From Trichodelitschia bisporula (taxonomy: Eukaryota): a DNA stretch of 64,000 nt. Positions 2,920-57,642 of this stretch are shown one piece after another (within the stretch, counting starts at the first letter, position 1; the number at the start of each line of letters is the position of its first letter). The notes below the pieces were generated by a model. It did no database searches. It was given only the letters and a program-made list of their open reading frames with translations, and was not told where the DNA came from. Position numbers and translations under genes: made by a program. The stretch covers positions 554,153 through 618,152 of the forward strand of contig ML996697.1 of NCBI GenBank assembly GCA_010356995.1, given 5' to 3'.

Positions 2920-4507
2920 TCACCAACTCACTCCTGGCAATCCCGCCAGAGTATCCCCGATCTGTTGAAGCTTTTCCTCCACGTCCTTCTTTTTTGCCCG
3001 TCTAGCCAACCACGGATTGCGCTTCCTCTTTTGATATGAAGTAGCGCGCATCATGCCCTCGAGCCGCTTGTTCCAGAACTTGTTGGCTGGGTCTTCCTTG
3101 ATGACCCCCTCCTCGACGAGGAACTCGTACAACTCGCCATTTTTGTAGGCTTCGTGCAGCCAGATCGGATCGCCCGCCACCTTTCCCGGCTGGTCATATA
3201 AACCCAGCGCGAGGTACTGGCGGTACGCGTCTGCGAGGTACCAGTCACACCGCGGATCATCACCCGGGCTCGGGAAGCCGTAAGCTCTCTCAGCGCCCAC
3301 ACAAAGGAGGGCAAAGTTGACGTCACTCGGCTAGTCGGTGAGGGTGCGAATGAGATGCCACACCGAAAAGTGGGAGATGAGATTGAACTTCTTACGCGCG
3401 GGTGCGAGATAGGCGAGCAAGTAAGGAATGCGTGAGGTTTCTTCCAGTAATCCGTGCTGGTGGAAGAGCATGCCGAGCATTCCCACATAGTGGGCCTTAC
3501 AGAACTCAGCGAACGTGCAACGCTTGATGAGCTTCAGGTAGAGCTTGCCGAGGTTTTCGGCTCGAGGCTCAGCGTACTCTCGCGTCAGAATGAAGCCGAG
3601 CGTCTGCCATGTGGGTGACAGCGAGCTTGGGGTGACGTGGTACGCCAACATCGCGTAAAAGAGGAGACAAGCGTGATCGTCTCAGGTCATCCCGCCCAAC
3701 TCATCCTGGAGCGTCTCGTAGCTGGTGAGGTCGACTTCCGGTTTGGCCATGCTGAACCCGGCATACACGATGTGCCGAGAGCTACCATCTGGAGAATCTT
3801 GCTGCACAACGCGCCAGTTCAGCTGAAACCATGGCCATATGCTAATTTTCTCGATGCCAGGAATCTTGGGGATTTCGTAGACGAGGCTGCGCTTTGACAA
3901 GACCTTCATCTTTTCAATGAAAGCGTCGCGTCCAAGCAAGTCGTAGATTTCCCGATAGAAGCGCACTAAGAATTCAATGTTGGCATCTTGTTATTGAGCG
4001 CGGTGAAAGCCAAAGTCAACGCGCGTCCAGACGTCCATGGGTGCTTCGTTCTTCTCAATCGCCTTGGCGAGAACCATTTCCCTACAGTGGTAGCTGTGCT
4101 CTTATTCGACGAAGTTGTCCACGCCCCAGACAGGCTCAGAGCTCACCGGCTTGAGGAATTTGGGATCGTACCCAGCCGGGGCTTTATAAAATTTACAGTA
4201 ATACTGGTGCTCCAGGATCCAGAGGGTCTCCGCGCACCGCCGACTAGAGTATTGCGTGTCATTGCAACGCTTACAAGTGAGTTTCGCGACATCGTCACAC
4301 ATCTCGCATGGAGCAGGAACTTTGTCAGCATATTTGCGGGTGCTTTAAGCCATTAGCAAAACTGTTGGATTATCAGGATGCCAGATAGCAAGAATGCCGA
4401 TCGGGCGGACGGGAAATGATACAACATTACGGCAGCTTAAAGGCTGATCTATGAGAAAGGGAGAGTACTTACGCGTAAGGCTTCTCACCGCTGGCCTTCG
4501 GCGCCAT
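2920..4507 (-). pseudogene. MYND-type zinc finger protein gene with four in-frame stop codons
   Basis: ATG at 4507 and an intron at 4343-4472 (GTAAGT...CTAAT...AAG). One reading frame then runs to 2920. It contains CEMC..CKRC..YSSRRC..H..C. Stops are TAA 4102-4104, TAA 3991-3993, TGA 3682-3684 and TAG 3331-3333. Confidence 0.75.
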
Positions 4508-5437
4508 GGCTCTTGCCGTCTTTCAAGTTTCACGCGTCGCGCTGAGGATGTTGGGCTGATGATGCGGGGAAGCTGGCGATAGAATAACGGAATGTGAAAA
4601 ACAGAAAGATGCCGCTGAACGGAAGCTCGCCGGATTCTGAAGCCTGCACCGAGAATGAATGGGAGCGTTTGCTCGGGGACTTTGGAGTTGACAGTCTTGC
4701 GTTTACACTTTACATGGGAAGTAGGAAGAGGAATGAAGGCAAGGGGTACAGTGCCAGGTTGACGGAGGTCTTTCGGTGGATAACGAAACGATTGTGAGTA
4801 AATCAAGCACCCCCCACCACTAGCTAGCCAATCAAGCCAACGCTTTTCTTACCGCCACGAATCCCTCCCCATGATTCCGACAAGAAATGCGGAAGGCAAG
4901 TTATTATCAATCTACTGAGAAGAGCTGAAAGCATACCATCTACTTAAAGTAGCTATCATTCCAAGTCCAACGACTCTACCAGATATCATCACATCACTAG
5001 CGTTGCTTGATCTTCCGCGGCTCTTGTCTGGCGTACGAGGTCCTCTTGCATTATCGAATCTAGAACTACTCTATTGAGCCACATTGCGGCATGTTTTTTT
5101 GGCTCCAGCCGACTTGGTGCAGTCAGATTCGAAAATAAGGTGTACCTTCTTCAAACGTCTTTAGTGGCGTCAAGCTAAGTGATAACCTATAGCACAAAGC
5201 GAGAGTTGAGGCTTAGAGACCGATCTTTCGGGGAAGTCATAAGAAGGCCGAGGATTCCCCTCTCATATCTTTCGTTTCTCGAAATGTGTTCTATGCGCGA
5301 CACTTCGCTGGGTATCTACCTCCCCTCTAAGCAACCACAAACACCTGACGGCAAAGCTAACTCACATTCCCCGTCACTCCCTGACACAGAGTAAGCTTTC
5401 ACGAAGGGACATGCAAAGGAAGGCACGTACATACAGC

Positions 5438-6034
5438 CTAAGAATTTCCTGTCTGTTCCGCAGTTCCGTTCTCCAAGGCCTTCAAAAAGCCTTTGCTGAA
5501 CCTCACCATCTGTTCGTATGCAACATCGAAGCCATCATTGCCTCCATAATAGGGGTCAATCACCACTTCCCCCGGTGAACCTCCCCAGTCGCCGAACAGC
5601 ATGAGACGAGCAAGCTTGGCCTCTTTGCCGTCCTTGCGCTTCCTCCGTAATGCCTTCTCGCGCATACTCTCCAGTTCTTCCAGGTTGTCACGATCCATCG
5701 CAAATATCCAGTCGAACTCCTCGAAATCTGGAATCACAGCTTGTCGGGCAGAGTGGCTATATTGTACGCCGTGTGTTTGTAGAGTACGCATTGTTCTGGG
5801 GTCTGGGGACGAGCCTGCATGCCATGCGCCAGTTCCGGCAGAGTCAACCTCGCCGACAAGGGGATGAGAGGGGGTGAGGTGGCGGAAGACGGCTTCAGCC
5901 ATAGGAGAGCGGCCTTAAATGTCAGCTATGAAGCGGAGACGAAGACGGAGGGAAGCTTGTTACGTACAAATGTTTCCCAGGCATACGAACAGAACAGACT
6001 GCGGCTTCGACGACGCCGCACTGGTTTCTGACAT
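5438..6034 (-). CDS. LTP1: Low-molecular-weight phosphotyrosine protein phosphatase
   Basis: Removing intron 5914-5967 restores the P-loop VCLGNICRSPMAE. Also DSAGT and DPYYG motifs. Confidence 0.93.
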
Positions 6035-6578: not shown

Positions 6579-9500
6579 ATGACGATCACGCTGCAGGACC
6601 GCCTGCTGCGCCGGGAGCTTGGTGAACCTGCGCGATACTCCCGGATCAAGGGCATCTACGGAGACAAGCAGTTCATAAAAGATCTAGACATCGTGAACGA
6701 ACTCGGCGGACACGATGGCTGTGTGAACGCCCTATGGTATGCTACTACTTAAGCCGTCAGTTAGCGCGATCTTGCTAAGCATTCGCAGTTGGTCTCGTAC
6801 GGGAAGTCTTCTTGCATCGGGATCGGACGATACGCGTGTGAACATCTACTCCTACCTTCCCGAAAACGCCGATGATCAATTTCGCCTTGCCACCGTTATT
6901 GACACGGGACATTCAGGGAACATCTTCTCTGTCAAGTTCATGCCGTACTCCGGCGACCGTACCATCGTGACAGCCTCGCGCGATTCTCAAATTCGAGTCT
7001 TTGACATTGAGCGGGCCCCTGTCTTTGAAGGGTCGCAAACGCGGATAACATCCGGACCATCCAACACCAAGGTGTACAGATCGCACAACCGCGCGGCCAA
7101 ACGCATTGTCACCGAGGCCTCTCCGTTTTACTTTCTCAGCTGCTCTGAAGACGGCGAAGTTCGACAGTGGGATATTCGCCAGCCCGAGTCGGCGTATCCC
7201 CAATCCTCTTCGAGCTACCTTTATCGACAGCCGGGCCACAGGGACGCGGCACCTCCACCACTCATATCTTACAAAGACTACCACATTGATTTGTACACCA
7301 TCTCTTGCTCTGCCAGTCAGCCCCACTACATTGCCCTTGGCGGGACCCACCTACACTGCTTCCTGCACGACAGGCGGATGCTTGGCCGCGATAAGCTGCA
7401 TGAACGCGGCGGACTGCTACCGGCCGGTGCAGTATCTGATGATAAAACGCTTGGTGCTGCGACTCGCTGCGTACGCAAGCTTGCTCCCCACGGACAGTCG
7501 AAAATGGGACGCATGCAGGCGCAGCAAATCACGGCCTGTAAAATTAGCGACGCCAACCCCAACGAACTCATCGTGAGTTGGTCGGGCGACTTCATCTACA
7601 ACTTTGACATCATCCGAGAAGGAGAGCCTAAGGAGGTTCCGAAGCCGGCAACTAGAAACGGTCGTGTGAAGAAGCAGGTGGACCTCAAGCGGAAGAAAAC
7701 AGGACGTTCTCGTGACGTATCCCGAGAAGGCGATGCGAGGGCTGATTCTCGGCAGCGAACCGAGGGCACAGAGTTATGGTCTGTTGAACTTCGGACAAAT
7801 GACGGCAGGAGGTATGAAATACCTGGCGTGCGTGTTACTGCTCCGGCTTCGAGTGGGTCTCTCGGACCCCCACCCCCTGATAGTCCCCCCGACAATAGGA
7901 TTCTTGGGGCAGTCCAGGAGCTGCTCGATACAATCTTCGAATCTTCAGCGACTACCAGGGGTCACTATCGCAATCAGCTGACACACGTCCTCATTCTGGC
8001 CGGGAAGGCTTTCGAAGAGGTGGATCCTTCCGTCGTCAATTGGGTTTATCCCCTTACCGAGTCCACGAGCGAGATTGCTTTTCAGCAGAAGCAACGTCAT
8101 GATCGTTCCAAGGTATGGCGATTTGTTCAGGCCTGTGGGGTCATAGCTAGGGCAGGTTCGGCGAGGATCACTGCAAGAGTTCCGGAGAGATCACTTGAAT
8201 ATTTCGACATCATTCGCCCTGCGCCTCGAGAGTCCAGCCTGCCGCTCGATCGTCACGAGCATTTTACGTACGATTTTATCAAGGCCATTCTCCTGTGGGT
8301 GGACAGCGGCGCCGGGGCCGTTCTTCGAGAGTTCACTCTGGGCGATACTGCCGAAATGTCCTATTCGCGGCGGCGCCCTATTTCGACGGATGCTGGCATT
8401 GATGCCATTGACACGGAACTAATTCCGTACCTCCTCAACTTGGCTCGAGATCACGAGGTTGTCAAAAACCCGCATCACGACATGGGAGAGGAGCGCCAGG
8501 TTCTTTTCAGAACCGAGAAGGATGCTGTTAGAGCATTCGCAGCGGTGCTGAAGGTCCCGTTTACTGACCTGACTGGCGATGAAGCCGATGAAGCCGGCGG
8601 CGAAGTGACCAGAAGCCAAGAACGGGAAACAGTGAGGAAGTTCTGGGTTTATGACGTATGCCGCGCGATCCTCCATAACGCCGCACTGGATATTCACAGG
8701 TCCATGATCGATATTGCATTTGGAGACCACCGCAGGGTGACGCAACCTGAATCTCCCCCAGTCCCTGATGCACCAGGTTAGCTCATCTTGAATTCGCATA
8801 CGCAAACACGTGCTAATAGCTCAAGGCTCATACGAAGGCGCCGATCACGCCCATGACACCGAAGATGAAGAGGAAGACGATGATGATGCGGACTATGGCA
8901 GTGATGATGATGACTACACGGATATCTACGATGGCATGGCTAGCTTTTTTAACGAGCGCCCGAGAGTGAAGTCAAAGACAGCAGCTGAGAAGAATGTACC
9001 GTGTACTACTCACACGCGTACGTACCGGGGGCATTGCAACATTGAAACCACCAAAGATGTCAATTTCTTCGGCCTCCAGGATGAGTACGTTGTCAGCGGC
9101 AGCGATTGCGGAAATTTCTTCATCTGGGACCGCAAGACGAGCCGCCTCCTGAACATTCTCGAGGGCGATCAGGAGGTAGTGAATGTTGTGCAAGGTATGC
9201 TTCCGGCACTTGCTCGACGCCGTAAACTAACTCCCTACAGGCCACCCGTACGAGCCCATGCTGGCTGTATCCGGCATTGACCACACCATCAAGATATTCT
9301 CGCCTGACGCGCGCGATCGCCAAAACGCCGCGCTTGGCAAGGGCATGACCCACTTTGACTACAGCACCTTCTCTAGCATCTCTAGCATCGACCTGCGCGG
9401 CACACGTTTGTACCACCGATCGCCGAGGCACGTGGAGCGCGGGTGGTCTGAGTACGGTGAGGCCAGCATGTCGGCCGACGATGAGTCGGACAGCGATGAC

Positions 9501-12351: not shown

Positions 12352-12378
12352 GGTGACGGTTCGACTTGAGGAGCTGAT

Positions 12379-21780: not shown

Positions 21781-23220
21781 CTATGTCAACAAAGCCCTTC
21801 TCTCCGATTCCGTTCTGCATCTATCAGCCTTGTCCGCGTCTTCCACTCTGAATCGTCATACATGGGGATTACGGAACCATGTCTTGGCCGCTTCGGCAAC
21901 TGGTAATTTCGTGATGGAATCCAATTCCCTGAGGCGATGTCGGTGGACTCGAACGGCACATAGCCGCGCCCTGTCCCTGTACATCAATTGAGAGCTAGAG
22001 AAAGCGCCTTGAATGGTAGCTCACCACCAAACTCGTCAATAAACATGTGCCACTAACACTGGTTAGGATCGGCGGACACTTATCAAAAAGATCTCCTACC
22101 TTGTTGCGAACCGAGTTCGAAGCGAATACCAGAGGGCCTTCTCCCCGGGCTATGGGCCCCTTGCCTATCCCCACCTTCACTGTCCTCCAATTGCCCATGA
22201 GACTGTCGCTCGACTCCTGGAATATGAACTTCCCATTTGGTGTGGCAGCATTCTGCGCTCGTTCATCCTTGCTGAAGCGGTAGTACCTGGCAGACCTTTC
22301 GTCATAGACGATGGTAGTATCAATCACTGAGAATCCGGTGTCGATGTATGTCTCGGCTGGCGTAAACGTTTTGAAGTCCTTGGTAGTTGCGCGAAGGATA
22401 CGATGGTACGACGAGCTGCCGTGAGAAGGATCGTTTGCTGGATACAGCGTACTCGCCCAGAAGACTAGGTAATGCCCCCTTTGCGTGTCATAGATCGCTT
22501 CAGGCGCCCAGCTCCTTCGTGTTAGCCGCGTTCCTCCCCTGATAGTACGGGCACCTACGTGTTCCCCACTGTTGGAGGGGAGACCTGAACAAGTCTCGCA
22601 AATGTAAGCACTGATGCAATCGTTTGGGATAGCAGTTGGCTACCTCGGTCCGCTCCATTGCTTCAAATCACTCGACTCCCAGACTACAATATTCCGGCTT
22701 CCGTGTTTCGAGGCAGCTCCCCAGTCTCCCTTTCCATTCATCTTGAGGTCCTTAATCCCGGCATAGCATCAGAAGATCTCCTCAAGCACCAAGTAAGGCA
22801 AAGTGAGGGGCATACAGTAGCCAGGATCCAGAACTTGGATCCATCATGAGCTCGAATGATGGTCGGGTCGCGCACACCTCGTGTCCCAACCGTGGAAGCC
22901 AAATACGGTTTCCCGTTTTTCGTTTCCGTCCAGTTGAGGGGGTTGTTGCCATTGCTCACGGCGAAGTATATGCTCTCTCCATCCTGGTTGCGACTTTAGC
23001 TCCGCCACTTTGACCACGAGTTCCGGTGCCCGGCGGCTTACTGAGTATCCCTCTCCGGTGAACTTCGGTCATTCAGGGTCAGTTATTTCCATGCTCGGCA
23101 AAGGCTGGCGCTCACGTAGGCAAAGAGATAGCCTCCGAACTGCTTTCCACTCTGTGCCAACGATGCACTTGCGGGAAGCAAGGTTACAGCCAAAGTGAAG
23201 AGCACAGCAAGCCACTTCAT
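21781..23220 (-). CDS. Secreted glycoside hydrolase family 43-type protein (341 aa, 9 exons), largely missed by the ORF track
   Basis: Signal peptide MKWLAVLFTLAVTLLPASA. Exons 23116-23220, 23042-23062, 22816-22983, 22644-22750, 22559-22594, 22100-22511, 22025-22052, 21862-21976, 21781-21814 join in frame. Motifs GYLFAYFTGE, GVRDP, ATDL, GNTWAPE, VIDTT, EGP, RHGSVIPIT. Confidence 0.88.
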
Positions 23221-24452
23221 TATAAGATGAGAGCGGAGGCTCACAGGCTGATCTGGATGGCTAACCAGTAGGTCTAGGTCACAGCATCACAGAGAACTTT
23301 GTCAACGATGTCCAAGCAGCCATCTTGAGAGCCCTAGTGAGGTCAGTGGAGTCACTTAATGCGGAGTAATAAAGCGGCGACCCGCCATATTACCCAGCAT
23401 TGCTAATTGACCGACCACTCGGGCCGAAAGCGATTTCCCGGGCTGTGCTGCTTAGATCTTAGCCCCATGAATACGCATTGTGCTCTATTACGAGTAGTAT
23501 CGTGATAAATCAACTGAGACATGATGCCGAGCCCCGAAGTACCGTATGAGATGAGATGACTGAATCCGCGCGCCGCATCTCGGCTTCTCATGAAGTAAAG
23601 CCGCGAGCAGCACACACCTTTGAATCGCAACTGCGAACCCGGTCCAAATCTACATACGCGTTCCCCAGCAAGGCATTGCGCCCGGCTGTGGTCCGGGATT
23701 TAGCGATCCCCGCCATGCACGTCAGGCCAACCCCCGAACGCCTAGGAGGCTTGGTGAAGAGCGGTATCCCGCCGCCCTAGCATGCAGGCGCAGTAATCGC
23801 GATCGACTGTGGCGATGTTACACAGCACCGTAGATGACAAGTCGGCGGATCGGCACCAACCTTGCGCGACGAGTCGAAGCTCGCCAATGCGGAGCGCGCC
23901 TCGCTCGCGACGAGGCAGAATGCGCCTCGGATTCGGTAGCGTGGCCGGGAGGAGTCACCCCGTGAGGCCGCTGTGTTGTTCTTCGTGTCCTTACGAGGCT
24001 ACATACAGTGTGATGTTGGCAGTACGGTTGCCGGGGATCAGTCCTGCGAAATGAGTGTCGGTGTTGTTGTCGGTGGCCGGTTGGGTGATGGGGCGATGGC
24101 CGACGTGTTTTGGTGGGCGGAGCGTTGCTGGGGGTTAGGGTGAGGAGCGAATGTTGGGTCAGGCCTCACCACCACCCACACTCGTAAGCCGCCTACTGCG
24201 AACGGCCACGGTGATGCTCCCTGGCGGGTGAGATGGCGCGGGGGGCTCATTTTACCAGTTGGCTTGCTTTTCATAGACGGTGGTTGGGGCTTGCGAGAAC
24301 TAGTCTTAGGCGAGCTCGACCTTTCGCCAGATGGAGGCACGACATATATCAGTCGGACAGCCTCGCTTGGGTCCGGACTCTTTTTTGACCCTTTTATTCT
24401 CAGATCCTACTTGGAATATCCCAGTTCTTCTATCACAGCCAAATACATAGTC

Positions 24453-25064
24453 ATGGCTTCATTATCCTACGACCAGACCCGCTGTCCAGGATACGAGTCT
24501 TCACATACGCTCAAGATGCCCCGGAAACGAAGCCGCAGCTCCAAAATCGTCGACTTCGGGCTCCGATTCAAACACTTCGTCTCTGAACACGCCGCCTCAA
24601 ACCCCAAGGGCACCTCAACATCCCATGACTACCAAGCTATCCCACTCGACCCTCCTCCACCGTACACCCCGTCTCAACACCACACCCAGTTCGACCCTTC
24701 GCCTTTAAACGTGGAATCAGTACAATGCCCCCAGAGCTTTGATGCAGCGAGTACTGTTGAACGCCGGCAGGGGCAGGCCCTTTACGGAAGGCACCTTTCC
24801 GTCGCTCAAGCAACGAGCATACCTTCGACCCAATGGCATTCAACCACATCGTCATATTCCACTTCAAGACCACTCAGTTTCCCTGAATACAACCCCTATT
24901 CGCATTTGAGAGCGGTCTCGGACAGCTGTTTGGGCGAGTACAAGGCAGGAAGCGTGTGGGAAAGGATTGGAGAACGGAGAGCAAGACAGCAGGGCGAGTC
25001 TTGCGCTTCAACAGAGTTCTCAACTGGAGGCGGAGTGCAGAATGAATTTCGGAGTGACGAATAG
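24453..25064 (+). CDS. Hypothetical Ser/Pro-rich protein (~203 aa)
   Basis: Open frame from an ATG in good context. Contains PPPPY. No recognisable domain. Confidence 0.4.
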   Translation: MASLSYDQTRCPGYESSHTLKMPRKRSRSSKIVDFGLRFKHFVSEHAASNPKGTSTSHDYQAIPLDPPPPYTPSQHHTQFDPSPLNVESVQCPQSFDAASTVERRQGQALYGRHLSVAQATSIPSTQWHSTTSSYSTSRPLSFPEYNPYSHLRAVSDSCLGEYKAGSVWERIGERRARQQGESCASTEFSTGGGVQNEFRSDE

Positions 25065-25436
25065 AGGCAGGCTGCACACTGACACGGAGGGTCGAAGCTT
25101 GAAGATGTGGTCAGACAGCTTAGTGGAAGCGGAAAATGTACACTGAGGTCTTACAGGCCGACGCCGTGAAAAGCGATGCTCATGCATCCATTCACATATC
25201 CCAAGATATGAACGATCTGAGCTCGTAAACTCAATGCATCGAAATATCCTGTATGGCCATTCACGTTTGCAAAAACAAATGATTCCTCCTGTTGCCTCTG
25301 ACGGATGTCCCATGAATACCGAAGCATGCCCGTCAGCCCAGAGCACTGCAAAAGAAACACCATAACAAGATCACCTTGTACCCCCATTCCACCACCATGA
25401 TCTATGTTCCTCAGCCTCATTGCCAGTGAAACTCAC

Positions 25437-26946
25437 TCAAAACTCCGCCGGTGCCTCTAGTGATGACGGAAGAGCGTTGAACACTCGCTCGTTCAACCCA
25501 TAGTGCACCATGAAGCCACCCCCAAGAATCCGTTTGATTGCTTCATAGCGATGAAACTTCCACCATCTGTCGATCACGAAGCTGCCATCTTTCCCGAACT
25601 TGATGTTGAGGCGGTGGCCCAGATAACTGGTTAAGTCCTCATTAAGAGCCGTGGAGAATCTCGGACCCCGCCATGGGTGATCGACCGAGTGGGAGACATC
25701 AGAGAAGGCCTTGTGCAGGTCCTTGCGCTTGTCTTTACTGAGGTAGCGGGCGCTTGACCGTGAGAGCTCCAGGAGCTTTGATTTAAGAGAGAATTCGCCG
25801 TCACGATAGACATTGTAGCGTTGCGCCCAGTTGCCCCGCCGAAAAGCGCCTGACTCGTATCCATTCTCAGCAGAAGTATTGTTCTCGGGTTCTTCATCCT
25901 CTTCGAGCTGCGTGAAGCTCTGTTCGTAGAGCAGGGCAATGTTCTCTCCTGCCGCGACCTGGACGCTGAGGATGTTGCTGTCCAGTTGGCTTTCAAAGCA
26001 CTCCATTGGCTCCTGAGATTTGCCTTCCAGATCTTCGAACCGTGTGGCTAGAAACCCCCACTCCTGCAATGCCGCGGTGACGACGCTCCCACTGTCAGGC
26101 GCATTGACGAACTCCCCATCCGACAGGATGATCTGGAGGAAGAAATCCATGACGTCTTCCGTCTCTTGGATGTCAGCACCTGCGAAAAAGGTAGCCGCAC
26201 CGAGCGCGTGGATGGCCATAGCCTGAGCATTGCCGGAGCTTGTATCCTGGATACGGGATCTCAGTGGTTCACAGACCTCCTGGTACACTTCTTCTTCCGT
26301 CGACAAAATGGTTGCCGCAAGCGCTAAAGACGTAAGTAGCCATAAGAGAGTTAAGGAAATCCGGGCGAGTACCTTTGAGAGCGAATACCGCTTCGCGCTC
26401 ACTGCTGCCCGACTTGAAACACTTGACGAGTGCGGGAACCAGCTCGTCCACTCTCAGCTCCACCCCTTCGCCTGCATACTGCGAAGCCACAATGTTGGTG
26501 TAGATGGCAAGTGTCTCCTCACGGGCCTCGGTGGTATTTCGCTTGTTTCGCGAGCGCTCAATGATTTGCTCTATACACTCGGAGACCTCGTGCTGCCAAA
26601 CCTCGGGCGGAGCATTGTCGAAGTCCGCGAACCGGTTGAGATCCAGGGAAGCAACGCTTTTTGCGTCAGTGTAGTTTTTTGATAGGTGGGCTTGGAGGCA
26701 AACGTACCTTGACTGCATATCGTCGGAGAGATCATCCTCATCATCCGATCCGTGTCTACTGGGGTTTCTAGACGCGGCCCGCGATACGGCCGGCGAGGGC
26801 CTCGGTGAAGCGGCGGGAGAGTTCACTGCTGAACCCGGCGCAGAACCAGCTTGCGAACTGCGGGCTGAAAGGTGGCGCGCTTTGGCTTTGCGCGAAACGG
26901 TCTTCCCGCTCTCGAGAGCCTGGCGACGGAGGTCGCGTTCGTGCAT
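25437..26946 (-). CDS. Interferon-related developmental regulator (IFRD) domain protein; 3 exons
   Basis: Starts MHERDLRRQALESGKTVSRKAK. Introns 26657-26707 and 26324-26372. Motifs AALQEWGFL, VQVAAGENIALLYE, IDRWWK, GGF..HY..N. Confidence 0.88.
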
Positions 26947-28108: not shown

Positions 28109-29882
28109 CTAATATATCTCTGAAAGCGACGACCTTTCTTGCTCCTTCAGCCGCTTAACATCAACTTCATCGAGCATGATCTCCTCTCCCTCGCCATCGT
28201 TCGCATCTCCAAGAGCATCAGCCCTTTTACCGGCCAACATGCCACTTTCTTCCTCCCACTCCTTCTCTTTCTTTGTCATGGATCCAGCACTTCCCGTTCG
28301 GCGAATTCTACTGCCGCTCTTCCCAGCACTTCCAGTGCGATTCCTTTCAGCACTCTTCCCACTGCTCCGCCTTTCACTCGAGCCTCCCCTCTCATCAATA
28401 TAAGCCAGTGCCGACCGCGATGCCTCGGAGCGTGACATGCGCGATGGCAGTTGATGAATGTTGGTGTCGAAGTAGTCGCTCTCATCTGAAACGTCGACCG
28501 TACCAGCGGTACCGTGCCGAATGCTCTCCCGGACACTCTGCAGAAGTCGGTTACGCACTACACCTTGCGGTGTACCCTTCGACTTTCCAGCTGGGAGGAA
28601 GAGACCTTTTTCCGTTTCTTCATCGGACGAAGTGGTATCCTCGCCTCCATCCCGCGCTGCTTCATCGCTGATGTTGGCGTTTCCTGACGCATCCTCGGCC
28701 TCCTTGAGCGGCCCAGAAAGCAGGTCATTGCTGGTCTTCTTAGTAACATGGGCAGATGAGCTGGACTTAGTAGGGCTCTTCTTCCAAGATGCCGAAGTGG
28801 CGCTGTTGGGATCGCCATGAGAGGCTGTCGGATGGTCTTCGTCCGCATTAGGCGTAGCAGCCGTCCGAGCCAGTTGTAAAAGGTCATGCGTATCCTGTCG
28901 CCGAACTCGGTGCGGAATGTCGAAGTGCGCATGGTTGCAACCCTGCGCACACCCTCCCCAACGGCGACTTGGGGGCGCAGCGTTCGGAAGACCTTTCCCC
29001 TGTGAGGCGAGAATGGCAGCTTCCTGACGTTTGTAGTTGGACCACGTCCGGAGTTCGTTCTGGAGCACGTATTTCCCATTGTCCAGGTTCTGCTTCATGA
29101 TGATAAACTCGCAATGGTTGATGTTGCGGAGATCCTCGAAGTACTCGACGCTCCAGTGGTACCTCGGTCCACTCAGCAAGTATATTCACTTCCAGAACCA
29201 CAACGTACCATTTCATTAAGAAGATTCTCGTCATAAGCCCATGGGTGACCAAAACGCACACGCTCGGAAAGTCAGGTTCGCTGAACTGCCTCCACAGACT
29301 CTCGTTGAAGCCACTGACGCGGTCATACGCATCAGCCGCGCTCTCACCGTCCGGGATACGATAGAAGAAATGGCCGTAATCAGCGCGTTCTTGCCACATC
29401 CGCTCCATGGCGGCCGAGCAGGGCTGGAAGTTGCCAAAATCCTGCTCTCGCAGCCGCGGTTCTTCGTACACCTTGACCTTGTGCACTGGAAACGGCGACG
29501 GGCCCTGCTCATCATCGTCAGATGTGAGGGTCTTCAAGATGCCCTCGGTGGTTTCGCGGGTACGCCGGTAGGGGGACGTGAAGAACTGGAGTGTGTCGTC
29601 TGGTCTGAGTAGAGCGCGCAGTCTGCGGCCCGCCTCCTCGGCCTTTGCTGCCGTCAGGATACTCTTTACTCGACGCATAGCTGGAAGATTAAAGCAGGCG
29701 GCGTACCTGTTGCCAGCCATCTGCGGTGAGCTTCACACGATGATCCGGAATGTACTGATGAATATCGCGGTTCTTGTTGCCCTCTGATTGGGCGTGCCTT
29801 ATGAGCAATATCATCTACATCGACTGTTAGTATAAAGACTAGCCATGTCGTGTGCACAAATACCAACCCTTGGTTTACCCAT
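28109..29882 (-). CDS. Histidine phosphatase / phosphoglycerate mutase family, DET1-like; 4 exons
   Basis: Introns 29815-29867, 29643-29706, 29163-29208. The spliced product reads MGKPRMILLIRHAQSEGN, SPYRRTRET, EEPRLREQDFGNFQ, GESAADAYDR, LVTHGL, MKWYHWSVEYFEDL. Confidence 0.9.
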
Positions 29883-30387
29883 GGTTAGTTACGTTGAAGA
29901 CTGTTAGACTCCAGCAGTAGATAGGGTACACGTGGAAGCGGTAGTTTCGGAAGGTCGTTGAAAGCCCTTCTGGAAAGCCGTTTGTTAGATGTCGTGATGT
30001 GAGTGGTGGCGGGGGGGCAAACATCACCCCGTGGGGTCACCCTACCGGTAAGGGGCCTTGGCTATGGCCTGCTGTCGCTCAGCCTTACCTGCGAATCGGG
30101 TGGCGCTTGCTGGATTGTGCATCCGCTAGCCCAATTTCGGCAAGGCGACTTTTGTTGCGCGACTCCCATCGACTTTGCGGCGCTTCTTCTCTTCACCACT
30201 TCAGATCGCAGCCGGCGTCCAAACATCAAGCCTCATCCTCACCTTCTCGGTCACCGTAATCTCCTTCTCCTTGACAACGACCATCACCAACCACCCGAGC
30301 ACTTTCGCACTTCGGCTCATCACTAGACACCTGTCCATCTGCACTTCCCCGCCCTCCACCCTCAGACGCGCGACAGCGCACCTCACA

Positions 30388-30990: not shown

Positions 30991-31527
30991 ACGGAAAGGT
31001 TCAACAAAGGGACAGCAGTGTGTTGTTTGGAAGTTGAGGATTTCACTCGGGGCCTAACTTGGGGTCAGGTGAGTCAGACGTAACTTACTTGGAAGGGTTC
31101 CAAGGGGAAATGTATAACATTGAGACACACTCTTAGGCATGTGTGGGGTTGAGGGGACATGGGCTATTCAATCAGGTCATACAAAGGATCCAGGGGAAAG
31201 GCGCGTGGAGAACCCACAGGTCCCGCACGCAGCGTTTTCATCGTATAAGCGAATACAACTAGATACATCATTGGGGATGATCCCCAGTCATTTAAAACCC
31301 AGCGCGCCGTGTGCAGAAAAGCAAAGATGCTGTACCGACCAGGTACCCCTTTTATGCAAGCCGTCCGCAATGCAGATATCCCAGGCAATGAAACGCAAAT
31401 GGGAGAGACCCCGAGTAATCATACAAAGTGTTCACCTATCCCGCGCAACTGATGAACCCGAACAAGTAATCTATAGACAAGAGATTCTCGTCGAAGAGAA
31501 TTCTGCGCAAACACGATAGCCCAATGC

Positions 31528-35934: not shown

Positions 35935-37336
35935 CTAGTCATAGTGAAAGAGCACACTGATGCTCTCGCCGTGATGAACGCGGCGGATTGCCTGTCGAGG
36001 GTTAGAAAACATCTTTCAAGTAGCTGCTTTGTAGCCTACCTCGGCAAACACAGTGCCCACCTCGAGCACATCCAGCTTGTCCTTCAAAAGCCGCTTGTTC
36101 TCCGTCTGGTCCACGCTGTTGGTCACGACAACCTTGTCCAAGGCGCTTGCTTTGATGCGTTCGATAGCGTCTCCGCTGAGGATGCCGTGAGTAACGAGCG
36201 CGTACACCTTGGTCGCCCCCTCCTTTTTCAGCAACTTCGCAGCACGCGTGATCGTGTTGCACGTGTCAGCCAGATCATCGATTAGGATCGTGGTACGATC
36301 TGCGATGTCGCCGACGAGCATCATTGTGGCATTTTGCCGGTCACTAATCTGCGTCGGACGGCGCTCCTTGAATGGCATCAGTACGCGGAGTATTCACATA
36401 GCAACCCACAGAAGCACGAACCTTGTGTATAAGTGCAAAGGGCATACCGAGCGCATCGGCAATGGCTGTGGCACGCTTCGCGCCGCCAGCGTCGGGGCTG
36501 ACAATGACGGCCTGCTGGTAGTTGGGAATCTGGTACTGGATGTACTTGCGGAGCAGGTGCCGTCCGTACAGATTATCCACAGGAATATCAAAGAACCCCT
36601 GATACTGGGGATCGTGAAGATCCATGGTGATGACATGGTCAGCGCCGGCGCATGTTAGAAGATCCGCCACTAGTGTGCCAGCCTGCGCAACCCACTGCCG
36701 GTATCCGCGCTGAGGCTCGAACATCGGTGCCTTCGAGTGACCATCTCCGTTTACAGCCGCATTACTGCCGGCGAAGTAATCGGCCTTTCCAGGTTTCGCG
36801 AAGTCAATCTCACGAGGCCCCTCGGCAAAGCGGGCGTTCTTGGAGGTCGTTCCGTTCCCGTTTCCGTTGGAAGGCTCGCCCTCCGACACGTGCAGCCGCC
36901 CGGCCTTGTGCGGAGCGTCCGTGCCGTTGGGTCCGAGGTATGGAGTCTGCGGGCGGCTCTCAAATGTGTAAGCCCCGGTACGGCTGCCTTGACCCGAGCC
37001 CTTGGAGAGCGGCGCCCCGACCTTGTTGTAGGGGATATCACTTTGCCTCGAGTAGGGGAACAAAGGGAGAACAGCTATGACACGATGCGCCGATGCCGTC
37101 TTGCACGCCGAGATTGTAACCAGAAGTTCCATAAGGTGGTCGTTCACCTTGCCGCCCCCGGACTGGATGATGAATACGTCTTTGCCGCGCACCGACTCCT
37201 GTATCTCCACCCGCGTCTCTCCGTTCGCAAACTTTCCGCGGAGGACCTTAGCCATTGGGATCCCCAGTTGATTGCAGATTGTCTCCGTCAGCTCAGGGTG
37301 CGAGCTACCGCTCAGCACTACGATGTTGCGAACCAT
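35935..37336 (-). CDS. Ribose-phosphate pyrophosphokinase (PRPP synthetase) with a non-homologous insertion; 3 exons
   Basis: Motifs FANGETRVEI, PLFPYSRQ, ITMDLHDPQYQGFF, VSPDAGGAKRA, IDDLADT, VTHGILSG, AEAIRRVHHGESIS. Introns 36367-36421 and 35992-36039. Confidence 0.95.
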
Positions 37337-37770
37337 GTTTGCAGCGATAGCGAAGCAAGTTTGGCAGGTGGATGCGGTAGAGAAAGGTGTTGATTGAGGA
37401 GTCGTTGGAACTGCTAACGTGACAACGCCAACGCTGGGTCGCTGCGCAGGCCCTGTGAATTGATTTTGGCCTAGCGAAGGCTGGAGGAGTTTTTGTGGGG
37501 AGAGGCGCCTTGACGGGGGTTGGGCGACAGGAAGCTTCTCCAGTGGTGCGGACAGGCGCTCGAATTCGGGGGTCGGGGAATCGGAGGATGAAGGGAAGGG
37601 TGGGGTGGGGAGGGGGATGGGGGGGTTGTTGAAGGTAGAGGGGTAGGGAACGCCGAAAGAGGGAATTAGCGTTTACGCTTCCGAACTTTGGTGACCATGG
37701 ATGCTTGGGATCGTTCAGTCTTCATTGTGGGATCATGAGAAGAATACGCAGGATAGAATGAGTACGTTTC

Positions 37771-37788
37771 GGGGGGGGGGGGGGGGGG
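37771..37788. repeat. G18 homopolymer
   Basis: Direct reading. Confidence 0.9.
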
Positions 37789-38435
37789 AGGGGGTCTGGC
37801 GAGGGACGAGAGGGACAGGTCCCGCCGCTCGGCGTAACGAATTTTTCCGCCATAGCGCTGCAGCACTTGCGAGGTCGGGCGGCGAGGAACGGTTCGGTGA
37901 GCCAATGCCAAGGAGAGGCGACATTTTTTTTCTGTTTGAAGTCGCAGTGTACGAGTACGCCATATACCGCCCGTTTGCCTCCTTGCTCTCTGGGCTACGG
38001 CGTGTGTGTACGCGGTGCTGTAGTAAGCGTGTATGTGCCATACCATGAAAAAAGAGCACGATGTGCTCTCATCCCGCTCAATCAGAGAGAGAAAAAGGCT
38101 GGCACAGCCCATGCATTTATACTTGGAGCCCTGCAGCACAACAGTTGCACCGAGACCTCGGCGTGACCAAGGACATGCACGGCTTTTCGCGACGGGGCGA
38201 AAAGACTGGACTGTTGGTGCCTAAATTTCCATATCTCTCTCCCAATAAAATGCAGGCAGCATGTCATTGCCCGCGCTATATGCGCATACGTGGTACATTA
38301 GAACTAGGCTTTTAAACACGACCAAACGGTTGCGACGCCCGCTCAGCAGCCTAACTCTTGTCAAAGGTGAAAAACGCCAACAATCCACGGTGCATGAAGC
38401 GAGGTATCAAACGCCAGATAGTACATGTTTCCCAA

Positions 38436-39688
38436 TCAAAAGACGCTGATGTAGTTCCCGATCCTTTCCTTCTGGTTCTGTGCTATGCACTCCGCTATCC
38501 ACGTGATGTTGCGGATTTCCTAACGAACGGTCAGTGGATGCCTTTGATTGGGAGAAGGGGGCAACATGCCTGCTCGCGCAGCTTGACCCATGCGTACACG
38601 ACAGCATGCGTAAACTGCCGGGTGAAGGCCAGCTTTGAGATTTCCATCTCCTTCTGATAGAACAAATCTTCGAGGCTCTTGGTCTCGCCGCCTGCGCCGC
38701 CAGCCATGTTGCTGACCGCACCGCCGCTGCCCTGGCTAAGCCCGGTCTGGTCGAAGAAAGTCTTGTATTCAGAAACCCCATCGACCGCAAGCCGTACGCC
38801 CTCAACGTCGTCGGCGCGTGACAGAAGCAAAACACCCTCGGGATACAGCTTGCCGAAGTTGGGATACAGCTTCTTCCGGTCCTGCTTGGAGAGCTCGGTA
38901 CCGAACGAGTTAAGCGTGATGTTGATGCTCCGACGGTCTGCCTCGAATTCGAGAACCTCACTCATGACCTCCGCAGTTGGTGTCCCCTTCACATCGGGAT
39001 GCGTGTTGACCCATTGGTAAAAGTCTTCGAGATAGTTCTTGTACAGGGTATTGCGCACGATCTCAATGTTAAGCTCATCGAGATCGTGGTGACTCAACGA
39101 GCCCTTGAAATACGGTGCAAGAGGCGTCTCAATGAGCACCGAGTTGTAGAGCTCCTCGATGTTTGTGGCCACGCAAAGGACAGGCATTGTCTCAAACCAG
39201 CCCAACGGGTGGCAGCGTTCGAGCAGCTCACGCGTATCACGTTCGTGGAGCGTGCCTGTGATGAGAAGCGCAACATTATCGATCATGTAGCCGTAAGTCA
39301 GGTACTCCATGAACTTGGCCAGCGACCCGGTAGCGTTGGCCTGGAGATAGCGAAATTCGGCCACCAGCTTCTCCGTCGTCTTATCGGCGAGCGCGGAGGT
39401 GGAGGGGTTGGGTGGAAGCGAGGCAAGGAAATCGCCATACGCCGGCCCCAGCTGCAGCTTGACGTCTGGTAGCAGTGAGCATCAGCCTTTCCCAGATATA
39501 GGAGCAACCGTACCGTCTATCGTCTCGCATTGTGTGAGATTGTTGTAGTTCTGGCCGGTCAAGAGGGCGTTGCGGTATCCACGCACAACGCCTTCGATGT
39601 AGCTACGACGGTCAGCAGGCCTTTCCAGCAGCATAACAAGGTGGATGCACACGTACCCATTGGACACATTGTAGAACAGTCCCTCCAT
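38436..39688 (-). CDS. VMA6: V-type proton ATPase V0 subunit d; 4 exons, last intron GC-AG
   Basis: Starts MEGLFYNVSNGYIEGVVRGYR, contains CHPLGWF and FEADRRSINITLNSFGTEL, ends [29 protein letters not shown]. Introns 39603-39656, 39466-39513, 38520-38569. Confidence 0.97.
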
Positions 39689-40506
39689 GACAGGCAAAAG
39701 GGGTGGAAAGAGGGCGGTTTGGTGGAGGCTTTGTCTGGTTTGTCTTGCTTCGTCTGCTGTGACTTCGGTGCCTGGGCCGATGGGGGGGGTGGGCGGCGGA
39801 GAGCGGGAGCTTTGGCCAGGATGCGGTGGTAGTGACCCCTGCAGACCGACCTTTAACCGTTCCGCCAAGTCATGATGAGTGTGGCATGTGGCGCCTGTGG
39901 CACTTGTGGCGCTTGCGGTGTCAACGTACGGTGTGGCCGTGCAAGCCTTCTCAGGAAGGGGGAGATTGGCGGGGTTTTTTGGTGCCTTTGGGCGGGGGAG
40001 TACGTACCCGTCCACGTACCAAATACAAATACAACAACTGTGTCGTCCACTACGGTACCGTACCAACCATCAACCACTCTCATGATGTGCTAGACCTGCT
40101 CCAGATAAGATGTTCGCAGTTTGCTCTCGATGATTTTTGGTCTTGTCAAAACATATTTCGAAGCATTTGGTTGATCTGCAGGATAGAAACAGAGCCCAAG
40201 TTCTCGACTTTTGTATGGTGCCTGCCTCCACAACTCCGTGATATCTGCGAGGCGCAGTAATGGCTGTTTGGTGGAGGCTGGCACAACTGGTTCCCCAAGT
40301 CCTATGGTCCCAACTTCCTTCCCTTGAAGCTTGACTGACGTATCAAGCCTACGCGTGACACTCCATCATACGAGTAGGAGTAGGAGCAGGCAATAGCTCC
40401 CCACAACGTGTATAAAGTCGTCCTGCTCCCCTCACGTCCTCTTCCCTTTTCACCTCTCATCACACCGTAACTTTAAGCTCCCTGATTCGGACATCAACCA
40501 TCCGCC

Positions 40507-43444
40507 ATGCACGATCATATTTGCGGTTTCTACTACCTCATTGCTCCGGCACAACCCTACGGCTACGCACGCCGCTGCTACCTCCCCCAAGTCGGCGTGA
40601 AGGCACATGCCACGGTTCTGGCCAGCACCTCCCGCACCGTCCTTACCCAGACCTTTCAGACGCCCTCCACCAAAGGCGTCCGGCAGCTACGCTACACATT
40701 TCCGCTCTACGATGGTGTGTCTGTCGTCGGATTTACTTGTCATGTCAACGACCGCGTCATTACCGGCGAAGTGAAGCAAAAGGAAGTGGCCAAGGCTGAG
40801 TACCAGGCCGCCGTTGACCGCGGTGAGACGGCCGCCCTTTTGGAGCAGCTACCAGAAGCCTCGGACGTGTTCACGACGACCGTGGGGAATGTCCCACCCG
40901 GCGCTAGACTCCTCGTAAACATCACCTATCTCGGGGAGCTCAAGCATGACGCAGAAGTCGACGGCATCCGCTTCACCATTCCCACGAGCATCTCGCCGCG
41001 CTATGGGGATTATCCTGGCGAGCTTTGTAACACCGTGAGTTATGAGTCCGCTGGGAAAAGCTTCGAAGTGACGGTCGACACCACTCTGGCCAGCGGCTCT
41101 TCCATCCGGGAAATGCGCTCCCCAAGCCACCCCATTTCTGTTTCGCTTGGGACCATATCGACTGCCCCCGACGCCGATGCACAACTCTCCAGGGCGTCCG
41201 CCACCCTCAGCCTCGGCTCCGCAGAGCTCGACAAAGACTTCGTACTGCAAATCGTCGCAAAGGAGACCTCAGTACCGAAGGCGTTGCTGGAGATGCATCC
41301 CACAATGCCAGGACACCGCGCCCTGATGGCTACCCTCGTGCCCAAGTTCTCGCTTCCCCAGCAGCGACCGGAAATTGTCTTTGTCTGCGACCGAAGCGGC
41401 AGTATGCATGGCACTAGTATCACGATGCTTGTTAATGCGCTCAAGGTGTTCTTGAAGTCACTGCCTCTTGGTGTCAAGTTCAACATATGCTCCTTTGGCT
41501 CGAGATACAAATTCCTCTGGTCCAAGAGCAAGTCATATAGCAAGGATACCATGAACGAGGCTGTGCGTCATGTCGAAGGCTTCGATGCCGGCTTTGGCGG
41601 CACCGAGATACTGCAACCCCTCAAGGAAACCATCAGCCGCCGCTACCGCGACATGCCACTCGAGGTATTTCTGGTAACTGATGGCGAGATATGGCAGCAA
41701 CAGGAACTCTTTGACATGCTTAACAACAAGATAATCGAGGAAAAGGCCCCCATGCGTGTCTTTACTCTAGGTATCGGCTCTGACGTGTCGCACTCCCTCA
41801 TCGAAGGCGTTGCCCGGGCTGGCAATGGCTTTGCGCAGGCTGTAGGCGACAACGAGAAACTCGACGGCAAGGTTGTGCGTATGTTGAAGGCTGCTCTGTC
41901 TCCGCATGTCGGCGACTATACACTTGAGCTGAAGTATGGTGACGATGACTTTGAGGCTGTCCAACAGACTGCTAGCGAGGCTGTCAAAGAAGCGACTGAT
42001 GAGGCCCAAAAGGTATGTTTATCGCCCTGTCCTTGCGCTATTTCTCATGTCTTTTCAGCTATCAAGACGCAAGAGCCTCCAAATTCTGAAAGACATGGTG
42101 ATTTCTTATAATCTTTGCCTTGCCCATTCTAACTTGGTACAGGTAATGAAGCCAATCTCGCTCTTCGACACATCGGCCAAGCTGGACGACGATCCCAAGA
42201 AAGGAGACGAAAAATACTACCATCTGCCAGAGGTGCCCGCTCCGAGGATTATCCAAGCTCCACACCGCATTCCGCCGCTCTTCGCGTTCTCTCGCACGTC
42301 GATTTACCTGCTATTGTCGCCATCAACCTTGGACCGCACGCCGATCTCTGTTGTTCTTCGTGCCACCTCGTCATACGGCCCGTTGGAACTGGAGATTCCA
42401 GTGGACCAACTCGACCAGCCCGGCGAGACGATACATCAACTCGCCGCCAAAAAGGCCATTGCCGACCTGGAGGAAGGCCGCGGCTGGCTGACAGAGGCCA
42501 ATGGCGCCAGCGGCACGCTACTCAAGACCGAATATCCGGGGCAGTTTGAGGACCTCGTTGAACGCGAGGCTGTTCGGCTGGGCATCCAGTACCAAGTCGG
42601 CGGGAAGAACTGCTCATTTGTGGCTGTGCAGAAGCAATCTTCGAGCCAACCTGAGGCCGTGGACGCCGAGTACGACTTCATTGACGACATTGACGGCCTC
42701 ACACTCAGCGAAGGCGATGAGGGCGGCCCTGGCTCGGCGGGTTACACTGACATCAGGTGTACATCTCCACCGATGACCTCTCGTAGTCTTGGAAACGCGC
42801 GCCTTGGAGGCGCCGTCAAGAGCAAGAAGGCGAAAGGGGGGGCGTTCGGCAGCGTGCTCAGAGGCGGGTATTTTTCCGGGCTGCGTCCCACGTCGGCGGC
42901 TGCTCCGCCTTCCGCCTCTGCTCCGGTACCGTTTTCATTAACGGCCGCTACGAGAACACTTCGTGCTCGTGCCTCTTCGCCAGGATACGCCGCCCAGCTG
43001 AGTCAGCACAGTACTCCTGCACCAGGTGACGCTGATAAAGCGACTTCATACGCTCCTGTCAGTTATGGCTCCGAAAGTCACACCTCTGAGCTTCGCTCCC
43101 TGGAGCGTAAGGTCTCGGGAGAAGCAGAGCATGAAGTCGAGGGTGGTGGTTCCGCAATGCAGTCACTTGTGGACCTGCAGACCTTTGAAGGGTTCTGGGA
43201 GAGCAACCAACGCTTCTGGGCCATTGTTCACGTAGATGCCTGGGCATTGCTGAAAAAATACCCGCATTTTAAGCCTAACGTCCTGGCGACGGCTGTGGCG
43301 ATTCACTTTTTCCAAGCCAAGCTTGCAGGGGAAAAGGAGGGGTGGGAGCTGCTTGTGGACAAGGCACGGTCGTGGCTTGAAAGCACCATTGGGGGCGATA
43401 AGGTAGACGAAGTGACCGCGATTGCAGAGAAGGTCATTTCTTAG
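40507..43444 (+). CDS. VIT + von Willebrand factor A domain protein (VWA5A-like)
   Basis: VIT region YTFPLYDGVSVVGF and MIDAS motifs DRSGSM, GGTE, VTDGE, FTLGIG. Splicing is either one intron 42013-42142 or two introns (42013-42058, 42098-42142) around a 39-nt exon. Confidence 0.92.
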
Positions 43445-55400: not shown

Positions 55401-55832
55401 ACGAGGCTAGGTGCCAGGCATCGTGGGAACTTTTCCCTCTGTCGTCCTTCTGTCAGTTAGCCGTCTACCATCACCGTACAGTGCAACCTCTTTGGAGCGT
55501 ACATATTGAGACCTGCAGAGTGAATGGATCGGGGTGCCTCTCTTTCCGTCTCAAGGCGTGAAGTTGTGGAGGTTGTAAAGTCGTGGAGGTTGTGGAGGTT
55601 GTAAAGTTTGCGGAGGTAGAACTAGTCAATGAGCCAAAAGACCTCAACTTCCCGAAAGCGCAAGAGCGATGCCCGCCTGCTCCCTCCCACGCCTTCCTCA
55701 ACACCCGCCACTATCTGCCTCATCGTCATCTTCCCCAATGCCCCGCACCACTGCTCTAGCCTCACCATTGCATTCGACCATCAGCACAAACTCTATACAT
55801 AGCTCCATTGAGAGCTCCCAACGCATGGAGAT

Positions 55833-57642
55833 ATGGCCGCCCTGGGGGCTAGAAATGGTACGCTCCCTGCTCCCCTGCTTCCTTCCCCCCCTCCGTGAAT
55901 TCCCCCGCGAACCCCTGCCTTGTGGGCCGCGGCGACGGCAAACGCACCTGGGTCTGTCTTTCTTTCTGCTCCGAGCATGGCCATGTACATACGTACCAAC
56001 TTATTTACTGCATCCCGCTGCCGTCGTTAACAATGTGCGCTAAACAGGCATTGTCTCTCTGCCTCAGCTTCAGGCGAGAGATACTACGGCCTGGCACATG
56101 CTCTCTCCGCACGAGCAGACCGTGCTCGAGGCGATTGAGCGCACCATGTCGGTCTTGTCCATTCTAGGGTTCCTCGCAATCTTCTCCACCTACATGATGT
56201 TCCGGAGCTTTCGCCGCAAGTTGTTCAACAAATTCATGTTCTGCGCCTCCTTTGGTAACGTGGGAACCAACCTTGGGACGATCATCGCCACTTCCGGTAT
56301 CAGAAAAGGAGCGGGAAGCCCGGGGTGTCGCATGCAGGCTTTCATGATCGATTGGTATGTGTTACAGCTCACGAGCCTTGTTCAGGAACTGCGTCTAACG
56401 CTCTCCGAGGCTGATGCCAGGCGACGCGCTCTGGGCGATGTGCATGGCCTTGACCATCTTCTTCCAGTTCCACACGTCCATTAATATTGAGAGTCCAAAG
56501 CTGGCTCTGACGTATGCTTTCGTGTGCTACTGCATCCCGCTGGTACCTGCTCTGACCTTTCTGATCATGGACGTTACCCGGGGCAAGGCGTACTACGGCG
56601 ATGCAACGGTAAGAACTTCTCCAGCAAGCAGTGCATGCTGACGGGATAGATATGGTGCTGGATTGGTCATAACCACAACTCTCTACGCATTAGCTCGTTC
56701 TACGGACCCGTCTGGTATGTAATCCTCTGCCATCACTTCTGCACTTGGCTGATCCCGCAGGGGCGTGATTATCATTACCATGTTCTTGTATGCCTACACA
56801 GCGTCCACCATCATGGGACGCTCTGGTAGGCGCCTGGATAAAACGGTCAAGCTCTCCGCCTTGCAGAAGCACACCCAAATTTCGCAGACTTCGGAGCCGC
56901 GTGACTCTGCGCTCGACGGTAGCAGCATTGCGAACGCGGACGGAAACGGCGGTATCCCGGCACCGGTTCCGAAGACGCCGTCCAACTGGTTCATGAAGCT
57001 TCTGAGCACCCAAAATACACTGCCGTGCCGCAAGATATGCGGAATTGCAACGCGCCCGGCGACGGTGACGACAGTGGTCAGCACGCCACCGACTGGAGTG
57101 CCGTATACCCAGCAGAAATCGCGCACCAACCATGGAGTTAGACGCTACGCCTTGGTCGCCTTCATGATCTTCATCGCGCTCCTAGTGGTTTGGGTTCGTC
57201 TCGCGCGATACAATTTCGACAACGCTAACAAAATTAGGTTCCGGCCACGGTCAACCGCGTTTGGGGCCTTGTTAGTCTAAACCACACAAATTTCGCCATC
57301 AACGCTGTTTCCGCCGCCGTGCTCCCGCTGCAAGGCTTTCTAAACGGCTGCGTCTACCTCTTTTTCTCGCGTGTGGAGCTCGCTGCGGAGTGGGCGCGCT
57401 GGCGTGAAAGCTGGACCGCCAGACCCAAATCCACGAACGCGCATGCCGAAGCGTCCAATAAGAACGTTAACGCTGAGGCGGTGCAGGCGCTGCGCTCCGC
57501 CCGCACGAGGAGCAGCGATGCAGAGGACGGTCTAACGGTGGAGGAAATGTTGGCAGATCTTGAGGCTGAAGAGGGTCGGGGGCGCCGTGAGCGGGGAGGC
57601 TGGGGCGAGCGGATTAGACACAGCTGGCATCGTCGTTTCTAG
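55833..57642 (+). CDS. cAMP-receptor-like (Dicty_CAR/CRL) G-protein-coupled receptor; 6 exons
   Basis: Introns 55858-56047, 56355-56409, 56609-56649, 56715-56760, 57194-57237. Multiple hydrophobic segments consistent with 7TM. Motifs CRMQAFMIDWLMPGDALW, YGDATIWCWI, FYGPVW, WVPATVNRV, LPLQGFLN. Confidence 0.88.

Follow-up and report, generated by a model that had tools for sequence, protein, structure and literature searches.

The introns of a 64 kb stretch of Trichodelitschia bisporula (a Dothideomycete of the dung-group, with a genome of 25.8 Mb in 44 contigs), hereafter the window, were analyzed for their 3' splice sites. Acceptor choice in the window follows the distance from the branch point, and many introns end in AAG or GAG (together RAG) rather than in CAG or TAG (together YAG). 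Since the genome-wide rates are like those of other fungi, these are probably the U2-type introns usual in filamentous ascomycetes with compact introns, and the window a local cluster of minority acceptors that reflect a known splicing habit, with no new splicing machinery. A loss of discrimination at the −3 base and altered splicing factors, both proposed for this lineage in a preliminary description of the window, are not supported.

Splice joints were read from Logan contigs of two runs (X1 and X2) of one sample, aligned to positions 21901-41900 of the window. The runs are presumed to be RNA: no run is recorded as such, and GT..AG joints are visible in the contigs. Fifteen of the 23 joints were listed, and every joint count given here is among those listed. 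All 15 are compatible with an AG end, and they define 14 distinct acceptors: three GAG (22512, 22595 and 29163, which are all the GAG sites within the aligned part), four AAG (22751, 25098, 26657 and 29643), two CAG and five TAG. The RAG share is 7/14, and at these seven sites the joints rule out that the hand calls were wrong and a nearby YAG was really used. Since each contig is a single path, minor alternative acceptors or intron retention may occur as well.

Our own list of the window contains 40 introns (17 CAG, 10 TAG, 9 AAG and 4 GAG); it is non-exhaustive, with some YAG introns probably missed. At 13/40, it agrees with the RAG richness first reported (11 of 42), and the AAG sites at 8825 and 25098 are additions to those named before. 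The four GAG introns of the preliminary description were found where it had placed them, and the three covered by joints are all used. Their donors are GT, and a branch-like motif precedes the final G by 10, 10, 10 and 11 nt. The 13 RAG introns are listed below with donor and acceptor, distance of the branch from the intron end and evidence.

4343..4472, minus strand: intron of a MYND-like gene, GTAAGT..AAG, branch CTAAT at 10 nt; sequence and frame
5914..5967, minus strand: intron of a low-molecular-weight phosphatase (LTP1-like) gene, GTACGT..AAG, branch at 8 nt; frame
8777..8825, plus strand: intron of a WD40 gene, GTTAGC..AAG, branch at 9 nt; gene finder and frame
22512..22558, minus strand: GH43 intron ending AAG-GAG, with the GAG at 10 nt used; RNA joint in both runs
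22595..22643, minus strand: GH43 intron, GTAGCC..GAG, branch CTTAC at 10 nt; RNA joint in both runs
22751..22815, minus strand: GH43 intron, GTATGC..AAG, branch CTGAT at 18 nt; RNA joint in both runs
23063..23115, minus strand: first GH43 intron, GTGAGC..AAG, branch CTGAC at 16 nt; frame, absent from the 15 listed joints
25098..25154, minus strand: intron 3' of the IFRD stop, GTAAGA..AAG, branch at 13 nt; RNA joint in X2
26657..26707, minus strand: IFRD intron, GTACGT..AAG, branch at 9 nt; RNA joint in X1
29163..29208, minus strand: intron of a DET1-like (phosphoglycerate-mutase-family) gene, GTACGT..GAG, branch CTGAG at 10 nt; RNA joint in both runs
29643..29706, minus strand: DET1-like intron, GTACGC..AAG, branch at 11 nt; RNA joint in both runs
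36367..36421, minus strand: PRS intron, GTTCGT..AAG, branch at 11 nt; gene finder and frame, absent from the 15 listed joints
56355..56409, plus strand: intron of a GPCR-like gene, GTATGT..GAG, branch CTAAC at 11 nt; frame of the full protein

The introns are of the U2 type in their GT (or GC) donor, CTRAY-like branch, AG end and removal from the mRNA, and seven RAG introns were seen spliced. The other six (4343, 5914, 8777-8825, 23063, 36367 and 56355-56409) have a frame basis only, and all of them keep the frame when spliced. The AAG of the LTP1-like intron is required for the motif CLGNICRSP, and the exon that follows it is Pfam LMWPc. In the GPCR-like gene, the next AG (a CAG at +11) breaks the frame. 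The model at 22595..22643 agrees with the public protein P0244 across 241 residues, and MKWYHWSVE, which depends on the GAG at 29163, is found in the protein P0001.

Acceptors close to the branch were passed over whatever their −3 base. At 22512-22558, splicing passed over an AAG that lies in frame at 7 nt and used the GAG at 10 nt from the branch A; this was the doubtful case of the first reading, and the joint is borne out by the spacer between two GH43 motifs, which has 16 residues in 107 of the 107 homologues that match the pattern (119 examined), as expected from GAG and not from AAG. At 29643, a CAG 6 nt from the branch A was bypassed and splicing went to the AAG at 11 nt, so the skip noticed from the letters is confirmed by RNA. 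A TAG at 3 nt is predicted to be passed over in the WD40 intron 8777..8825. Over the 13 RAG sites, the branch motif lies 8-11 nt from the acceptor in ten and 13, 16 and 18 nt in three.

Genome-wide rates were obtained by gene finding in 80 stretches of 10 kb (800 kb) outside the window, one picked for Prp8 and the others by position. The controls came from 80 metagenome loci that surround the DET1-like gene, of which 53, totalling 594 kb, were distinct and kept. The finder was self-trained for each set, left the −3 base unscored, accepted AG ends only and forbade spacings below 7 nt. After filtering, the 187 predicted introns of this genome comprised 102 CAG, 64 TAG, 18 AAG and 3 GAG, and the 140 of the control fungi 70 CAG, 49 TAG, 16 AAG and 5 GAG, that is, RAG in 21/187 against 21/140 (p=0.32). 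Without the introns near DET1, the controls gave 7 AAG and 3 GAG among 75. Neither AAG (8-10%) nor GAG calls (about 1-3%) differed between this genome and the same-pipeline controls in 12 threshold settings. Comparison of the −3 base with other fungi had been proposed as a check, and by prediction it returned no excess; relaxed discrimination across the lineage at the rate of the window did not survive it. The GAG calls that were credible by eye numbered 2-3 of 9 here (313 introns) and 0-2 of 7 in the controls (241 introns), so few that the finder comparison is unable to separate 0.2% from 2%.

The predicted introns are short and tightly spaced. The distance from branch A to the final G had a median of 9 nt, with 88% in 8-12 nt, compared with 11 nt and 66% in the controls (p=6e-16), and the median intron length was 48 nt against 57 nt. 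The mode of 9 nt accounted for 83 of 239 predicted introns, with a degenerate branch matrix, and 186 of 187 used the first AG at least 8 nt from the branch. Since the finder learns a spacing prior and forbids less than 7 nt, the lower edge of this band is set by the two RNA cases at 22512 and 29643. No compensation was found for an unfavorable −3 base: 26 RAG and 213 YAG predicted introns were alike in spacing, donor and branch strength, base content (including A-rich context) and G at +1.

Distance appears not to be the whole of the choice. At a locus where TAG comes directly after a GAG at 10 nt (GAGTAG, L202), use of the GAG brings an in-frame stop, so that TAG must win if the gene model is right. 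In this one case judged by frame, the proximal GAG would not beat the distal YAG, and a −3 preference appears to persist, judging from the sequence. In a second GAGYAG case (L123), the YAG is presumably also taken over GAG, on a consensus that we assume. The earlier proposal that 3' sites are chosen by distance is upheld by the RNA skips of AGs at 6-7 nt and by the tight spacing, but not where GAG would lose to an adjacent TAG.

A second, independent estimate came from motif counts over the whole genome, for which donor and branch site both had to be strong and the spacer free of A, with reversed patterns as controls. The 9-nt spacing class gave 218 YAG, 18 AAG and 7 GAG (6, 2 and 5 in the reversed controls), and the 10-11-nt class, in which YAG and GAG were searched, gave 189 and 12 (7 and 9 reversed). 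The 19 GAG matches correspond to 18 introns, five well supported by frame and four more possible; set against 407 YAG matches, these 5-9 credible cases amount to 1.2-2.2 GAG per 100 YAG. By prediction, the GAG share would be 0.6-2%. For one GAG intron outside the window (L009), contiguous Pfam positions (203 and 205) across a SNAP pair back the junction. Pfam scans of 24 exon pieces around GAG candidates left 18 without a family, and the junction was fixed by the SNAP pair only. At L151, the GAG call follows a forkhead consensus that we presume, and a search of the Protein Data Bank gave no helpful match for the forkhead piece downstream. Two other approaches were discarded: a frame-consistency screen on strong motifs, with just 30 and 15 usable introns, and an annotation-free count of first AGs, swamped by chance matches in both sets.

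The upper 95% limits of the sample (4.6% for GAG and 16.7% for RAG), together with the motif counts, indicate that the 26-33% RAG and 10% GAG of the window differ from the genome rate. RAG introns are indeed in excess in the window (13/40 against 21/187, Fisher p=0.002). At a RAG rate of 11.5%, between 0.15 and 1 such window would be expected among about 400, for 40-48 introns.

Two of the introns were compared with their orthologues in the control loci. The intron that ends in GAG at 29163 has 16 orthologues there, ending in YAG in 14, in AAG in two and in GAG in none, while the 29643 intron is present in 23 loci and ends in AAG in 8 of them. AAG is therefore common in these fungi, and the GAG at 29163 looks local.

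Several points weigh against a local cluster of an ordinary habit. The genome-wide acceptor rates are predictions, not RNA, and at its main setting the finder recovered 7 of the 14 RNA-listed acceptors and made one or more false calls. Over the part covered by joints, it gave 12 introns, seven matching listed joints, four plausible but unlisted and one contradicted by a continuous contig. Both the finder and the motif counts are biased towards strong introns, and the motif counts, by requiring a spacer free of A, underestimate AAG. The figure of 186/187 for first-AG use is partly built into the finder through its spacing floor and learned prior. The RAG excess of the window persists without GH43 (9/34, p=0.03), and half of the RNA-listed acceptors are RAG. 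Finally, 1-2 GAG per 100 YAG exceeds the 4 in 2022 introns of Fusarium core genes.

The splicing factors compared by residue (Prp8, U2AF1 and Prp18) gave no sign of a relaxed −3 fidelity. The alpha-finger region of Prp8 is identical to that of three solved orthologues around the equivalent of Q1594, and in an ungapped alignment with the yeast protein, Q1594, W1575, E1576 and W1609 are all unchanged. In U2AF1 (L169:1403-2154, plus strand), H29, C33 and S34 are intact; CSRKH is found in 111/120 homologues, and position 36 is K, likewise in 111/120. Sixteen other departures from the homologue consensus all lie outside the −3 pocket, A159 being common to only 4/120. The conserved loop of Prp18 resembles that of yeast. 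Slu7 and Fyv6 genes are present and U6 has an intact ACAGAGA, so that a standard major-spliceosome core was found. No change was seen at the four Prp8 residues, the three U2AF1 residues or the Prp18 loop, and the suggestion of altered factors fails on the residues that contact the −3 base.

Human U2AF1 Q157 is a cancer hot spot adjoining the −1/+1 bases. Its equivalent here is L, which was rejected as a lineage-specific change, since L is present in 99/120 homologues; Q is kept in 19 more distant ones, those named being yeasts and Taphrinomycotina. This L sits in a remodelled second zinc finger (CCRLNSG), a clade-wide feature unlinked to any splice-site trait here. The Prp18 gene (L004, minus strand) has a single predicted intron, with a GC donor, located where the conserved loop begins.

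Taken together, the data would fit the following order of events. The branch point would be fixed first. The 3' AG would then be drawn from a short window opening about 8 nt past the branch A, where the first AG is used, and nearer AGs would be passed over irrespective of the −3 base. This base would act as a graded preference (Y > A > G) that decides between neighbors and places no veto on a lone AAG or GAG. The resulting genome-wide share would be about 8-10% AAG and 1-2% GAG, and the window would be a cluster at the high end, through chance and the selection of the window.

A modest effect of the lineage is unlikely. It holds that shorter and tighter spacing leaves fewer competing AGs and so raises GAG to 1-2%, against about 0.2-0.5% in other filamentous ascomycetes, with the −3-reading residues unchanged. 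The spacing difference (9 against 11 nt; 88% against 66% in 8-12 nt) favors it, as do the 5-9 credible GAG against 407 YAG when compared with 4/2022 in Fusarium, the L009 intron outside the window and the lack of GAG in all 16 orthologues of the DET1-like intron. At a rate of 0.2%, four GAG in 44 introns would be expected in fewer than 0.001 windows per genome, and Yarrowia couples fixed spacing with 3.1% GAG (PMC13309789). However, the same-pipeline controls also give 1-3% GAG calls, though most look doubtful by eye, and RAG introns have neither shorter spacing nor stronger donor and branch scores than YAG introns. The Fusarium core genes are moreover a strong-signal subset from four non-independent species, and p is near 0.05 when the positions counted are roughly independent. 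The stronger wording, that the branch-to-AG window has moved some 2 nt closer than in related moulds and that geometry alone gives a five- to ten-fold GAG tolerance with wild-type Prp8 Q1594, U2AF1 S34 and Prp18, is likewise unlikely. If true, T. bisporula, with its many introns, would offer a natural experiment on whether GAG use in fungi is set by spacing rather than by −3 chemistry. If a link of spacing and GAG held across fungi, it would help to tell apart the ruler role of second-step factors and the −3 pocket of Prp8, which have so far been studied mainly with yeast mutants.

It is also unlikely that the cluster is gene-specific, with genes of young introns, such as the patchy GH43, carrying less optimized acceptors. 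GH43 has two GAG and two AAG among its six listed introns, which is 4/13 of the RAG introns of the window, and among its best 120 homologues are a few fungi and many bacteria. The other nine RAG introns are nevertheless spread over further genes, among them the conserved LTP1, PRS, IFRD and DET1-like, and the position of the DET1 AAG intron is common to 23 control loci. A spliceosome that has lost −3 discrimination, with about 1/4 of introns RAG and 1/10 GAG, as first proposed, fits the 13/40 and 7/14 of the window but is very improbable, being largely refuted by the sample limits, by a 9-nt motif class with GAG in 7/243 before background removal and by the intact key residues of Prp8, U2AF1 and Prp18.

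The reading of ordinary introns in a local cluster, as found, carries little weight beyond adding RNA-backed GAG acceptors for a Dothideomycete. For practice, gene models or motif searches restricted to YAG would miss about 1/10 of the introns (RAG), and those restricted to HAG (AAG, CAG or TAG) 1-2/100 (GAG).

Other features of the window were noted. After a 100% identical record of its own species, one window protein had its nearest matches in Venturiales and other Dothideomycetes. The fungi among the best 120 homologues of the GH43 gene (21950-23220, minus strand) are Ceratobasidium/Rhizoctonia, Venturiales and one chytrid, and a lateral origin with introns gained later is possible. A V-ATPase d subunit-like gene (named by reading) has a GC-AG intron at 38520-38569 (minus strand), with RNA joints in both runs. 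In the IFRD gene, the donors 27085 and 27141 share one acceptor (27030-27141, minus strand), an extra intron lies past the stop and contig depth is greatest within 21901-41900; regulated isoforms are possible. The MYND-like gene (2900-4507, minus strand) has in-frame stops past its first intron and may contain further weak introns or be decayed. At 23335 and 30545, contigs from each of the two runs pass over into sequence of no relation to the window, as an assembly chimera or a long-range joint. Between 44000 and 54000, about 10 kb of lower GC content (0.45-0.48) with no open reading frame above 133 codons and apparent degenerate repeats is possibly decayed transposon DNA. A DUF1168 protein, which we take to be of the PRKRIP1 family, is encoded at 30388-30990 (plus strand). 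PRKRIP1 is counted among the second-step factors believed to be metazoan-specific (PMC12707134).

In the literature, neither a genome-wide GAG rate for Pezizomycotina nor an intron study of this species was found, though supplements or subscription papers may hold one. The introns of T. bisporula resemble those of filamentous ascomycetes such as Fusarium and Hypoxylon in their GT donors, CTRAY branch, few pyrimidine tracts after the branch and short branch-to-acceptor distance, and also in having AAG as a regular minority acceptor. In Fusarium core genes, RAG makes up 5.69% of 2022 introns (4 GAG and 115 AAG entries) and 83% of pyrimidine tracts precede the branch site (PMC5677156, where the Y89 value of Kupfer et al. 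2004 is also quoted). The Hypoxylon paper gives the acceptor of filamentous fungi as HAG, with branch-to-acceptor spacers of 6-7 nt, and terms GAG rare, with no number attached (PMC9024468). Unlike the Fusarium core genes, T. bisporula seems to use GAG several-fold more often (1-2% predicted against 0.2%), and unlike our own control loci, it has a modal spacing about 2 nt shorter.

An acceptor set by distance from the branch point is shared with Yarrowia lipolytica and the hemiascomycetes. Constrained branch-AG spacing evolved repeatedly in yeasts (PMC2483917), and RNA-seq introns of Yarrowia end in CAG (79.5%), TAG (11.1%), AAG (6.3%) and GAG (3.1%), and their spacer is fixed at 1 nt (PMC13309789). 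Unlike Yarrowia, T. bisporula has a degenerate branch motif and a spacing band of 8-12 nt rather than one fixed length, so that a ruler with one dominant distance and a near-invariant branch motif was not found. Among relaxed-fidelity mutants, yeast Prp8 Q1594A raises GAG and AAG use (PMC12707134), deletion of prp18 also increases both and activates branch-proximal AGs (PMC10711555), and U2AF1 S34F/Y accepts A and C while G stays excluded (PMC7505975). These are the mechanisms to which the preliminary description appealed. The matching residues in T. bisporula are wild-type. Unlike the prp18 deletion, it skips branch-proximal AGs, and as with wild-type Prp8, its GAG-TAG case, judged by frame, is resolved to TAG.

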